A program made the translations under genes and the position numbers. The notes under the pieces were generated by a model, which saw nothing but the letters and a program-made list of their open reading frames with translations, ran no database searches and was not told where the DNA came from. From Mobula hypostoma (lineage: Eukaryota), in NCBI RefSeq assembly GCF_963921235.1, contig NC_086108.1, positions 6,200,001-6,264,000 of the forward strand: 64,000 nt of DNA. Reading direction: 5' to 3'. Shown one piece after another: positions 8,211 to 58,555 of the stretch. Within the stretch, counting starts at the first letter, position 1, and every line of letters starts with the position of its first letter.

Positions 8211-10397
8211 AACAACAGGAATTCTGCAGATGCTGGAAATTCAAGCAACACACATCAAAGTTGCTGATGAACGCAGCAGGCCAGGCAGCATCTCTAGGAA
8301 GAGGTGCAGTCGACATTTCAGGCCAAGACCCTTCGTCAGGACTAACTGAAGGAAGAGTGAGTAAGAGATTTGAAAGTTGGAGGGGGAGGGGGAGATCCAA
8401 AATGATAGGAGAAGACAGGAGGGGGAGGGATGGAGCCAAGAGCTGGACAGGTGATAGGCAAAAGAGAATACGAGAGGATCATGGGACAGGAGGTCCGGGA
8501 AGAAGGATAAGGAGTGGGGGGGGACCCAGAGGATGGGCAAGAGGTATATTCAGAGGGACAGAGGGAGAAAAAGGAGAGCGAGAGAAAGAATGTGTGCATA
8601 AAAATAAGTAACAGATGGGGAGGTGGGGCCTTAGCGGAAGTTAGAGAAGTCGATGTTCATGCCATCAGGTTGGAGGCTACCCAGACGGAATATAAGGTGT
8701 TGTTCCTCCAACCTGAGTGTGGCTTCATCTTTACAGTAATCAGTTCCCCTCTACCACCACTCTGCTCCGTCTAGCGGAATTAGTCCTTACTCTTAATAAT
8801 TTCTCCTTTGGCTCCTCCCACTTCCTCCAAACTAAAGGTGTAGCTATGGGCACCCATATGGGTCCTAGCTATGCCTGCCTTTTTGTTGGGTCTGTGGAAC
8901 AATCTATGTTCCGTGCCTATTCTGGTATCTGTCCCCCACTTTTCCTTCGCTACATCGACGACTGCATTGGCGCTGCTTCCTGCACGCATGCAGAACTCGT
9001 TGACTTTATTAACTTTGCCTCCAACTTTCACCCTGCCCTCAAGTTTACCTGGTCCATTTCCGACACCTCCCTCCCCTTTCTAGATCTTTCTGTCTCTGTC
9101 TCTGGAGACAGCTTATCCACTGATGTCTACCATAAGCCTACTGACTCTCACAGCTATCTGGACTATTCCTCTTCTCACCCTGTCTCTTGCAAAAACGCCA
9201 TCCCCTTCTCGCAATTCCTCCATCTCCGCCGCATCTGCTCTCAGGATGAGGCTTTTCATTCAAGGACGAGGGAGATGTCTTCCTTTTTTAAAGAAAGGGG
9301 CTTCCCTTCCTCCACTATCAACTCTGCTCTTAAACGTATCTCCCCCATTTCACGTACATCTGCTCTCACTCCATCCTCCTGCCACCCCACTAGGAATAGG
9401 GTTCCCCTGGTCCTCACCTACCATCCCACCAGCCTCCGGGTCCAACATATTATTCTTCGTAACTTCCGCCACCTCCAACGGGATCCCACCACTAAGCACA
9501 TCTTTCCCTCCCCCCCCCTGCATTCCGCAGGGATCGCTCCCTACGCAACTCCCTTGTCCATTCGTCACCCCCATCCCTCCCCACTGATCTCTCTCCTGGC
9601 ACTTATCCGTGTAAGCGGAACAAGTGCTACACATGCCCTTACACTTCCTCCCTTACCACCATTCAGGGCCCCAAACAGTCCTTCCAGGTGAGGCAACACT
9701 TCACCTGTGAGTCGACTGGGGTGATATACTGCGTCCGGTGTTCCCAATGTGGCCTTTTATATATTGACGAGACCCGACGCAGACTGGGAGACCGCTTTGC
9801 TGAACATCTACGCTCTGTCCGCCAGAGAAAGCAGGATCTCCCAGTGGCCACACATTTTAATTCCACATCCCATTCCCATTCTGACATGTCTATCCACGGC
9901 CTCCTCTACTGTAAAGATGAAGCCACACTCAGGTTGGAGGAACAACACCTTATATTCCGTCTGGGTAGCCTCCAACCTGATGGCATGAATATCGACTTCT
10001 CTAACTTCTGCTAAGGCCCCATCTCCCCATCTGTTACTTATTTTTATGCACACATTCTTTCTCTCACTCTCCTTTTTCTCCCTCTGTCCTTCTGAATATA
10101 CCTCTTGCCCATCCTCTGGGTCCCCCCCCACCTCCTTATCCTTCTTCCCGGACCACCTGTCCCATGATCCTCTCGTATCCCCTTTTGCCTATCACCTGTC
10201 CAGCTCTTGGCTCTATCCCTCCCCCTCCTGTCTTCTCCTATCATTTTGGATCTTCCCCTCCCCCTCCAACTTTCAAATCCCTTACTCACTCTTCCTTCAG
10301 TTAGTCCTGACGAAGGGTCTCGGCCTTGAAACGTCGACTGTACCTCTTCCTACAGATGCTGCCTGGCCTGCTGTGTTCACCAGCAACTTTGATGTGT
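8211..10397 (+). mobile_element. Penelope-like retroelement (Neptune-like), 5'-truncated, with inverted terminal copy and TSD
   Basis: RT with GVAMGTHMGPSYA and LRYIDD (~8739-9510). Frameshift in the C-run near 9510, then Cys linker GTYPCKRNKCYTC in frame with a GIY-YIG-type endonuclease (VIYCVRC...LYIDET...RFAEH, to 10014). 8246-8738 is the reverse complement of 9907-10400. Flanking direct repeat gttcctaatacaggg at 8196-8210 and 10398-10412. Confidence 0.92.
10303..10339 (+). ncRNA. Minimal type I hammerhead ribozyme motif in the Penelope pLTR
   Basis: AGTC-CTGACGA-agggtctcggcctt-GAAAC-GTC-GACT: CUGANGA and GAAA cores, stem I AGUC/GACU, palindromic ACGU stem III, GUC cleavage triplet. Confidence 0.75.
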
Positions 10398-11599
10398 GTT
10401 CCTAATACAGGGGTATATTTTATATATAATATATATTTATTTATATCTAAATTCATGTAAAATCAAAGAGGGAAGATTATTGTTATTTGTTAAATGTATA
10501 TCGAGACATATAGTGAAATATGTTTATGTCAATGACCAACACAGTCCAACTATGTGCTGGGAGCAGCCCACAAGTGTCACCACACTTCTGGCACCAATAT
10601 AGCATCCCCACATCTTACTAACTCTAACCTGTACAGCTTTGAAATGTGGGAGGAAACCCATGTGGTCAACATACAAACTCCATATGCTGGGTGGCGATGA
10701 CATTACATGCCCACTGTTGTAACTGTGAACAAAGTCACTGGAAAAGACACTGAAGCTGGTGGATATGGAAGCCTTTATTCTCACCAAATGAGTATGCAGG
10801 CATCATATTTGAGAAGCTCTTAAAGAAGAGACCTCTTTGACCCAATATTACACAACATTGTTATATGCTGAAGAGCAAAGGTAACAGCAGAATGATTCTA
10901 TAGTTACAATGTGTCTACAATGCTTCCTTTCAATTACATACAGTTTTCAAACACCTTCGCACCCTCACTCCAGACACCCAAAATGACTTTAGGCTGCATT
11001 CATGCAGATGCTGGCACCTGAGTTCAAGTAGAATGTTCCTTTGTTTGTGATTGAGCCCAACCTGAAGCTCCAGGAAGCCCATTATTCTGAGCTGTTTTAA
11101 ATTCAATCTGCAATCCACATTCAAATCTGAAAATTGGTTGCTAGTGAAATTAATATTTGCTATATACCCTAACAGCAGAATACACCCTAACACCCACAAC
11201 TCACTAACCCCAACCTGGACGTCATTGAACTGTGGGGGGAAACCACAGGTCAACGTAGAAATTCCTTACAGACAGCAGCAGGAATTGCTGGCACTGTGAA
11301 GCGTTACGCTAACTGTGCCAAATAGCCTAGATTTTATTACTGAGTTGTTGTGTGAAATCAGTTTTTGTTTTTGTCCTTGTAGCCTCACGAGGATGGACCT
11401 CTGTACTTTCCAACTGTGACCACTATAAGCCTTGGCTCTCAAACCCTACTAGATTTCTATCATCCCATTACAAGAGAGAATGAAAAGGGAGAGGTTAGAA
11501 TCCTCTATCTTCATCATTGCTTTTTGCTATGTCATGTTTATATGATGGCAGCGTTTTCAATAGTTCATCTCACCTGAATTTGACACAATGTCGAGATCA

Positions 11600-12150
11600 T
11601 AGAACGTAGAAGAGTACAGCACAGAAAGAGGCCATTCAGCCCACAGTGTTGTGCCAAACCAGCTAAAAAGTAGATCAGAAACACCCAAACACTAATCCCT
11701 ACAACCTAGAACCATATCGCTCCTTCCTCCTCACTCCAAACCTCTCTTAAAAGCCTCTAATGTATTTGCCTCTACCACCATATCAGGCAGCGTATTCCAG
11801 GCATCCACCACTCTCTGAGTAAAAAAACTTACCCCTCACATCCCCCTTGATCCTACTCCCCCTCACATTCAACTCTGGGAAACAGATACTCTCTCTGTCT
11901 ACTCTATCTATGCATCTCATAATCTTATAAACCTCTATCAGATCTCCCCTCAGCCTCCACCACTCCAGAGAAAACAACCCAAGTTTATCCAGCCTCTCAC
12001 AATAGCACATGGCCTCTAAACCAGACAGCATCCTGGTAAATCTCTTCTGCACCCTCTCCAGAGCCTCAACGTCCTTCCTATAGTGGGGCGAGCAGAACTG
12101 TAAGCAATATTCCAGGTGTGGCCTAACCAGAGTTTTATGAAGTTACATTC
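11600..12150 (-). mobile_element. CR1 LINE 3' fragment
   Basis: QKRFTRMLSGL...[24 protein letters not shown]. Confidence 0.8.
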
Positions 12151-57355: not shown

Positions 57356-57716
57356 TCCTGGGTCCCTCCACCCTCGGATTGCCGTCAAGATTGTTTAATG
57401 TCATTTCCAGAACATGTGTAAAGGCAAACGAAATGTTCGTTACTTCGGCTCTGATGCACAACAACAAAAACCACAATAAGATCGAGAACACAGCCCAGTC
57501 CATCACAGGTAAAGCCCTCCCCACCATTGAACACATCTACATGAAACATTGCTGCAGGCAAGCAGCATCCATCATCAGGGACAACACCACCCTCCCCAGA
57601 TCATGCTCTCCTCTCACTGCTGCCATCAGGAAGAAAGTACTGGAGCCTCAGGACTCGCACCTCCAGGTTCAGGAACAGTTACTACCCCTCAACCATCAGG
57701 CTCTTCAACTTCACTC

Positions 57717-58555
57717 AAAGCAACACACAAAATGCTGGAGGAACTCAGCAGGTCAGGCAGCATCTCTAGGAAGAAGAACAGTCGACGTTTCGGGTCGAGA
57801 CCCTTCGTCAGGACTAATGGAAAAAGGAAATAGTAAGAGATTTGAAAGTGGGAGGGGGAGGGGAGGGGAAGACCCGAAATGATAGGAGAAGACAGGCGGG
57901 GTGGGGGGGGGGATAAAGCTAAGAGCTGGGAAGTTGATTGGCAAAAGGTATACAAGGCTGGAGAAGGGTGAGTATCATGGGACGGGAGGCCGTGGAAGAA
58001 AGAAAGGGGGAGGGCAGCACCAGAGGAAGATGGAGAACAGACAAGGAGTTATTGTGAGAGGGAAAGAGAGAATAGATAGACAGATAAATAAATAAATAGA
58101 TAGATAAATAAGGGATGGGGTAAGAAGGGGAGGTGGGGCATTAACAGAAGTTAGAAAAATCAGTGTTCATGCCATCAGGTTGGAGGCTACCCAGATGGAA
58201 TATAAGGTGTTGTTCCTCCAACCTGAGTGTGGCTTCATCTCGACATTAGAGGAGGCCGTGGATTGACATATCAGAATGGGAATGGGATGTGGTATTAAAA
58301 TGTGTGGCCACTGGGAGATCCTGCTTCCTCTGGCGGACAGAGCAGAGGTGTTCAGTGAAGTGGTCTCTCAAACTGCGTCGGGTCTCACCAATATATAAAA
58401 GATCACACCGGGAGCACTGGACACAGTATATCACACCCGCAGACTCACAGGTGAAGTGTCTCGTGTATGTATAAACAGTTGACATTTCGGGCCAAGACCC
58501 TTCATCAGGACTGGAAAGAAAAATGATAAATCAGAGTATGGAGGTGGGGGGAGTC
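57717..58555 (-). mobile_element. Penelope-like 3' fragment (GIY-YIG remnant with YIGET, plus pLTR) and a second pLTR piece
   Basis: ORF 58246..58485 HFTCESAGVIYCVQCSRCDLLYIGET; hammerhead motifs at 57780-57815 and 58477-58512 (degenerate). Confidence 0.85.
57780..57815 (-). ncRNA. Minimal hammerhead ribozyme motif (best-formed copy)
   Basis: Minus strand AGTC CTGACGA A GGGT CTCG ACCC GAAAC GTC GACT; stem II fully Watson-Crick; predicted cleavage between 57784 and 57783. Confidence 0.8.

Follow-up and report, generated by a model that had tools for sequence, protein, structure and literature searches.

We have analysed a stretch of 64,000 nucleotides (nt) from the genome of the ray Mobula hypostoma (NCBI RefSeq assembly GCF_963921235.1, contig NC_086108.1, positions 6,200,001 to 6,264,000 of the forward strand; hereafter "the window"), in which short hammerhead motifs recur on both strands. 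Judged from their sequence, these motifs are minimal type I hammerheads that lie terminally in broken copies of a Penelope-like retrotransposon. We consider it very probable that they belong to the pseudo-long terminal repeats (pLTRs) of an abundant ray element, likely of Neptune type, whose copies are likely dead and truncated and carry the hammerhead as a passenger. The kind of motif, its abundance and the architecture of the element are already described in those parts of PMC4209133, PMC8557442 and PMC3846280 that deal with Penelope-like elements, and the ray family adds to a class known since 2014.

Minimal hammerheads at a fixed position of the terminal repeat

A strict descriptor (stem I of 4 base pairs (bp), CUGANGA, stem II of at least 3 bp, GAAA and UH) has exactly five matches in the window, compared with a mean of 0.015 and a maximum of 1 in 200 block-wise dinucleotide shuffles. 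They are the same five, with the same coordinates and strands, that a preliminary description of this DNA had listed (8308–8343(−), 10303–10339(+), 40544–40579(−), 44085–44120(−) and 57780–57815(−)), and there are no others. The loose core pattern alone is weak and barely beyond chance (10 matches vs. 5.2 expected). Six degenerate copies named in the same description are all present, at 15287–15322(−), 32765–32801(+), 33381–33417(−), 33696–33731(+), 41317–41352(−) and 58477–58512(−); to these we add two further copies, at 24585–24623(−) and ~45958–45993(+).

An nhmmer profile built from 12 window arms finds 22 terminal-repeat arms, grouped into 16 insertions; the reversed window, searched with the same profile as a control, contains no arm. 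Thirteen of the 22 arms span the motif, or one per 4.9 kb, which makes the earlier estimate of one motif per ~6 kb a fair one, with all 11 core letters intact in only six of the 13. The view of the motifs as minimal hammerheads of Penelope-like elements, placed at one fixed position of the terminal repeat, is borne out, and the cut predicted at 57784/57783 was correctly placed.

Positions 15.2–16.2 are palindromic, and the motif has no stem III of its own; the ACGU palindrome attributed to it holds for the four of five strict copies that have CG at these positions, and fails in 8308–8343, which has UG and reads AUGU. The copy at 10303–10339 carries one surplus T ahead of GAAA. A single unpaired base separates positions 9 and 10.1 (A in 12 of 13 arms), and the pair 10.1–11.1 is G-C in 57815, in 58512 and in relatives, and G-U in the four young copies.

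Identity of the element and related loci

The best protein matches come from Hypanus, Mobula and Hemitrygon, which marks the host as a ray of stingray type, and reverse transcriptase (RT) homologues in rays stand at 84–96%. The RT is followed by a C-terminal GIY-YIG endonuclease; Pfam matches of the window fragments lie below cut-off, and those of homologue P0040 are significant. A CX2-5CxxC linker between RT and endonuclease is present in 45 of the 49 homologues bearing the endonuclease motif, and in the window copy at 9610–9636. This linker, which is also shared with Nematis, suggests the Neptune clade: the predicted protein of the element is likely that of a Neptune-type Penelope-like retrotransposon. 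No solved structure matched the RT fragment, and an exact 24-nt anchor outside the motif retrieved 0 stretches from viral, genome and metagenome collections.

Of 80 related metagenome loci, 30 had the endonuclease end plus 500 nt beyond it. The motif lies on the sense strand within 800 nt after the endonuclease in 12 of these 30, compared with one antisense case and 0 in 100 shuffles; its commonest form in the related loci is the Acropora Neptune motif given in Fig. S3 of PMC4209133, an indirect link to that clade. In a covariation alignment of 12 rows chosen for equal length (4 of the 13 window arms and 8 of the 24 locus hits), the core is invariant and six of the eight stem pairs change on both sides (21 cells), a level that 0 of 500 shuffles reached; the covariation of stems I and II that had been proposed as a check is found, in rows biased by descriptor choice. 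Among ray copies alone, stem changes are one-sided only. The catalytic letters are invariant across elements that are ~44–53% identical in RT, and one related locus, L001, displays the same plan of arms and tail with a 16-nt duplication.

Three observations on relatives stand beside these results. Loci L037:319-3729 and L044:326-3409 have whole open reading frames (ORFs) of 1136 and 1027 codons, respectively; in both, the hammerhead on the upstream side and the start of the ORF overlap, which is also the case in the anole element. At L050:2030(-), a canonical-looking type I hammerhead with a longer stem III adjoins a related element. Protein P0014 (a zebra shark model) reads at its C-terminus through what is apparently the same motif region, which hints at the family in sharks.

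Conservation between subfamilies, decay after insertion

Public assembled contigs from two probable DNA runs and two probable RNA runs (the RNA status being a guess) were aligned to 8191–8490, around the 8308–8343 copy. On these 300 bases, 105,606 and 90,185 contigs aligned in the two probable DNA runs, which come from two organisms; the family is very large, as had been surmised, although these figures are no copy number. Extrapolation from five strict motifs per 64 kb gives 25,000–180,000 per Gb, provided that the window is representative.

The majority sequences of young (4) and old (8) arms differ at only 3 of the 36 motif positions, all of them CpG, vs. 23 of 36 positions just upstream (p = 1e-6) and 8 of 14 just downstream (p = 6e-4). 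Among the rows listed, contig loose ends pile up at 8343 and 8307, i.e. at both edges of the motif, beyond which older-subfamily sequence follows; the same rows include no pile-up of contig starts or ends proper. Because of these few motif differences and of the loose ends at the motif edges, we conclude that the source lineage retained the motif as its flanks changed. After insertion the picture is another one: the core is broken in seven of the eight old arms; its cells differ there as often as those of the downstream block (12/88 vs. 32/245, p = 0.86); and the nine variant places listed within 8308–8343 are all CpG positions. The motif is conserved between subfamilies and decays neutrally in old copies. 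The suggested comparison of core and flanks is accordingly borne out between subfamilies, where the motif is kept better than its immediate flanks, and fails within old arms, where the core decays like the downstream block.

C at position 11.1 makes up 20–29% of the aligned contig depth, and the youngest subfamily has U there (8320 and equivalents), probably because a CpG mutation became fixed in the source. A lower CpG decay in the probable RNA runs was considered as a sign of selection on the ribozyme and rejected, the effect appearing outside the motif as well as inside it.

Anatomy of the insertions

The features that we assign to the element are listed below; the host gene named in some lines is the cytochrome P450 family 2 (CYP2) gene described in the last section.

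8196–8210, plus strand: left target-site duplication, 15 nt, exact repeat of 10398–10412.
8211–8738, minus strand: inverted 5′-truncated arm of insertion A, with endonuclease end, pLTR and a tail of ~33–39 nt; 96% identical to 9907–10403 inverted, the tail common to 40915–40947.
8308–8343, minus strand: minimal hammerhead with intact core and U at 15.2, lacking the ACGU palindrome.
8739–10014, plus strand: 5′-truncated RT with a frameshift near 9505–9520, CxxxxCxxC linker (9610–9636) and GIY-YIG endonuclease; dead copy.
10015–10397, plus strand: right pLTR of insertion A, without tail.
10303–10339, plus strand: minimal hammerhead, core intact, extra T before GAAA.
10398–10412, plus strand: right target-site duplication, exact repeat.
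15190–15643, minus strand: old single arm, endonuclease end to tail; decayed hammerhead at 15287–15322.
24473–24632, minus strand: old arm with tail; decayed hammerhead at 24585–24623.
32273–32866, plus strand: old arm, endonuclease to pLTR end; decayed hammerhead at 32765–32801.
33286–33802, both strands: old two-armed inverted insertion; decayed hammerheads at 33381–33417(−) and 33696–33731(+).
40488–40947, both strands: young two-armed inverted insertion; 11-nt target-site duplication, 40477–40487 / 40948–40958.
40544–40579, minus strand: intact minimal hammerhead in sense orientation within CYP2 intron 2; pairing with the inverted arm of the same insertion is predicted.
41217–41352, minus strand: short solo insertion from the 5′ edge of a decayed hammerhead (41317–41352), with tail; its 12-nt duplication has one mismatch.
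44017–44648, minus strand: young single arm, endonuclease to pLTR end; intact hammerhead at 44085–44120, sense in CYP2 intron 2.
45904–46040, both strands: old two-armed insertion, joined via stem I letters at 45957–45961.
51266–51397, both strands: old short two-armed insertion with partial hammerhead.
54807–54931, both strands: short two-armed insertion; head-to-head palindrome centred on the predicted cut site, ~54866/54867.
57718–58459, minus strand: single arm, endonuclease to pLTR end; intact hammerhead at 57780–57815 with G10.1-C11.1, predicted cut at 57784/57783.
58468–58552, minus strand: older hammerhead module (58477–58512), core intact, mismatch in stem I; 57815 lies on the same strand, 697 nt downstream.

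The YIG of the insertion A endonuclease reads YID, and its hammerhead lies 289 nt past the endonuclease stop. Six of the 16 insertions are two-armed and inverted, and exact target-site duplications (15 nt and 11 nt) flank two of these. The right arm of 40488–40947 begins within the hammerhead and carries the tail; in 45904–46040, the minus arm starts at the predicted cut site and the plus arm at the 5′ edge of the hammerhead. Arms end either 60–72 nt or 100–101 nt past the cut site (six arms measured), and tail ends are visible in the contig alignments at 8211 and 8217.

Between the tail and a conserved block that follows the motif, 8–9 bp can form, enclosing the shorter copy end (8211–8311(−) and five other tail-bearing arms). 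This pairing could mark a protein-binding or start element; the stem is unproven, with a two-sided change in 0 of its 11 pairs among six sequences.

Six of the 22 arms retain some endonuclease or RT coding sequence, the 5′ ends of the arms are scattered from the RT to beyond the motif, and no hammerhead falls within any of 24 tandem-repeat rows (period up to 500). Because of these coding remnants, scattered ends and hammerheads outside tandem arrays, the dispersed copies are likely dead, 5′-truncated insertions of an autonomous element, with the hammerhead as a passenger; the population of non-autonomous retroelements that the preliminary description had deduced finds no support in these three features. 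A non-autonomous family resembling short interspersed elements (SINEs) was rejected for the copies overall on the scattered ends and the coding remnants, and a retrozyme reading was rejected since no head-to-tail array holds a hammerhead. The sole close same-strand pair joins two subfamilies through endonuclease sequence.

A proposed mechanism and its alternatives

We propose that the protein of the element would cut its target and copy the RNA from ~60–70 or 95–100 nt downstream of the cut site, corresponding to the end of the pLTR or of the tail. As copying would start just downstream of the motif, even short copies would tend to include the hammerhead, which may be why short dead copies carry it; and priming from both target strands would likely give rise to the two-armed inverted insertions. 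In the source element, the hammerhead would be under selection and would likely need both a partner copy and help from the protein to cleave the precursor RNA, as in the anole element. In a genomic copy, it is predicted to be trapped, either in a rod in which G5–G8 pairs with CGUC or in a long hairpin with the inverted arm, and decays through CpG mutation. Folding calculations point the same way: the best monomer fold is the rod with G5–G8 paired, which is predicted to be inactive; the active homodimer is predicted to lie 9–11 kcal/mol above two rods (four stem-perfect copies); and a long hairpin is predicted to enclose the motif of two-armed insertions. On these models, naked RNA of genomic copies likely has no activity.

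Several points weigh against an abundant, likely Neptune-type ray element with dead copies and passenger hammerheads. A target-site duplication is missing from 13 of the 16 insertions (a 7-nt match at 51 kb being taken as chance), and the window holds no full-length ray element. The insertion at 41217–41352 has the look of a discrete short unit. Under the strict descriptor, 18 of the 30 related loci lack the motif, and the covariation rows came from descriptor hits that were required to pair, which biases the paired percentage upward; the fixed position of their motifs is free of that bias. Between young and old majorities, the next 36-nt downstream block differs at 9 of 36 positions vs. 3 of 36 for the motif, which is not significant (p = 0.11); and the core, seemingly better kept than the downstream block over all 13 arms (p = 0.03), is no better kept once the young copies are collapsed (12/110 vs. 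41/317, p = 0.74). The folding energies omit tertiary contacts and proteins, and the cut sites of the ray hammerheads are predicted from sequence.

A subset of the short copies might form a discrete non-autonomous family, SINE- or retrozyme-like, whose units would start with the hammerhead, be transcribed from the pLTR and move by means of the protein of the element. Such a family would account for 41217–41352, where a start at the 5′ edge of the motif is combined with a tail and a duplication (one mismatch), for the arms at 45958 and 24632, which likewise begin at or near that edge, and for the peak of contig loose ends at 8343; moreover, a 2026 preprint (bioRxiv 10.64898/2026.07.22.740005), in the part concerned, derives retrozymes from pLTRs. 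We nevertheless hold it unlikely: the 5′ ends of the 22 arms spread from the RT past the motif, the consensus of the loose ends at 8343 resembles the upstream sequence of old arms rather than random flank (with an agreement of only 0.43), and the hammerhead is in no tandem array. A different role for the ribozyme is suggested by two of the six two-armed insertions, in which one arm starts exactly at the predicted cut site (45957–45966, and the palindrome near 54866/54867): the hammerhead might cleave template RNA in vivo, some insertions being copies of the 3′ cleavage product and the cut-site junctions their fossil record. However, annealing or fold-back via stem I or the GTCGAC palindrome explains both junctions equally well with the same end point, palindromic inversion junctions are known in Penelope-like elements (PMC3846280, in its treatment of junctions), none of the ten single-armed insertions clearly begins at the cut site, and the reads presented for the anole element include none ending there (PMC11167929); we find this explanation quite improbable. 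No better chance is given to its extended form, in which in vivo template cutting is recorded in arms starting at the cut site (45957–45966 and 54860–54874) and the inverted arms form Alu-like double-stranded RNA whose adenosine-to-inosine (A-to-I) editing silences most ribozyme copies. Should the cut-site junctions have this meaning, ~100,000 copies would let the role of the ribozyme in Penelope transposition be read from junction statistics; a family this large offers the numbers for a statistical test of whether the cut site is where insertions begin.

The remaining explanations concern the activity and nature of the motif itself. It is very unlikely that host transcripts are cut by dimers formed between genomic copies on the same strand, even though CYP2 intron 2 contains two intact hammerheads in sense to the pre-mRNA that are identical over 36 nt and 3,541 nt apart (44120 and 40579), and the pair 58512 + 57815, 697 nt apart, could form all pairs of one active site. 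For the copy at 40579, pairing with the inverted arm of its insertion is predicted; the active site of 58512/57815 has a predicted cost of 13.3 kcal/mol, and an active homodimer the 9–11 kcal/mol given above; published dimers cleave poorly (PMC4209133, dimer assays), with no cleavage in eight of nine predicted Xenopus dimers (bioRxiv 10.64898/2026.07.22.740005, corresponding part); and old copies decay neutrally. Least of all do we expect the sequence to be a protein-binding or promoter element that merely resembles a hammerhead. An Rfam scan gave no hammerhead family match up to E = 1, the monomer folding energy is not better than that of shuffles (z from −1.45 to +0.38 in 12 copies), and a related element can insert in vitro without cleavage (PMC11167929); but against a mere resemblance stand invariant catalytic letters together with two-sided stem changes across elements as distant as ~44–53% identity in RT, and in the anole element core mutants abolish cleavage and a double mutant rescues it (PMC11167929, mutant experiments). 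Weighing all of these, we retain the pLTR hammerheads of an abundant, likely Neptune-type element with likely dead, truncated copies as the very probable explanation.

Relation to known systems

In the sections of PMC4209133 (Cervera and De la Pena 2014) on Penelope-like elements, massive numbers of minimal hammerheads are reported genome-wide, mostly solo and derived from truncated elements, the monomer being inactive and dimer activity low in assays. The ray motif is alike in its U-rich lead, CUGANGA followed by one bulged base, stem II, GAAA, CG palindrome, UH and short stem I, and also in its place in the pLTR, its mostly solo occurrence in truncated copies, its opposite-strand pairs and its thousands of copies per genome. 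It differs from the published consensus in that the youngest ray subfamily has G10.1-U11.1 instead of G-C; the species in Fig. S3 and Table S1 of that paper include, in the entries consulted, no cartilaginous fish; and the ray density, provided that the window is representative, lies above the 4,000–9,000 per genome given there.

Neptune of Acropora digitifera (PMC4209133; clade in PMC8557442, relevant parts) shares the RT, the CX2-5CxxC linker, the C-terminal GIY-YIG endonuclease, the inverted truncated arm and the tail, and the relatives that we found with the RT carry the Acropora Neptune motif. In contrast to Neptune, the ray duplications lie in ordinary sequence rather than in microsatellites, and the window has no full-length copy. 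The plan of two arms, tail and duplication is itself published for Penelope-like elements (PMC8557442, PMC3846280, architectural descriptions).

For the Poseidon element PAc of Anolis carolinensis (Frangieh et al. 2024, PMC11167929, biochemical parts), reverse transcription has two internal starting points, which delimit the tail and are used on both target strands; the hammerhead cuts only when the protein is present, and insertion in vitro can do without the ribozyme. The ray element likewise has its hammerhead upstream of two copy-end positions that define a 30–40 nt tail, and priming on both strands, as in PAc, would account for two-armed insertions. PAc belongs to another clade and is without the linker, and protein-assisted cleavage, shown for PAc, is only predicted in the ray element. 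PMC8557442 and PMC11167929, in their passages on the subject, leave unsettled what the hammerhead contributes to Penelope transposition.

Non-LTR retrozymes (PMC7229834; bioRxiv 10.64898/2026.07.22.740005, parts on their structure) also contain a type I hammerhead in a short pLTR-related repeat. Retrozymes form head-to-tail arrays, mostly with canonical hammerheads, and circular RNA, whereas the ray copies form no array, have the minimal motif and have arms that reach into coding sequence.

Among the partly available sources on Penelope hammerheads in Chondrichthyes, we found no description of the ray family; the supplements of the preprint cover one cartilaginous fish and may bear on the novelty of this family. 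Paper listings on twin priming, editing and intronic cleavage yielded nothing specific.

An A-to-G excess in contigs

Within 8241–8444, contigs of the two probable RNA runs, from two organisms, show, among the variants listed, T>C on the plus strand (A>G on the sense strand of the element) at 11 and 10 places, and those of the probable DNA runs show the same changes at 4 and 2 places. Six of the nine listed A>G rows reach at least double the frequency in each of the RNA runs (e.g. 12% vs. 2% at a UAG). An A>G excess on the sense strand is a pattern that resembles A-to-I editing, and the excess in the two probable RNA runs looks like A-to-I-like editing; three of the nine rows fail to fit, the opposite strand shows none, the runs do not come from a single individual, and calling them RNA is a guess. 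Should the inverted arms be edited in double-stranded RNA form, ADAR in rays may have a main substrate in these repeats.

Host gene and other features of the window

15764–55283, minus strand: host cytochrome P450 family 2 gene with nine exons, outside the element.

The gene is 77–92% identical to ray proteins, and 17 of the 22 arms lie within its introns. The density shown here is 13 motifs per 64 kb, several of them within this one P450 gene. The hammerheads 58512 and 57815, which belong to different subfamilies and lie 2.5 kb upstream of the P450 start, are the best natural dimer candidate in the window.

Elsewhere, 58711–59726 encodes integrase zinc-binding and core domains in two frames, as a fragment of an LTR retroelement. 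Two minisatellites are without hammerhead: a purine-skewed one of 27 nt with ~144 copies (3660–7378), and one of 63 nt (38114–38547). Positions 1–1999 and 61239–63222 form a 2-kb direct duplication with 90.7% identity, which is possibly the unit of a tandem gene cluster.

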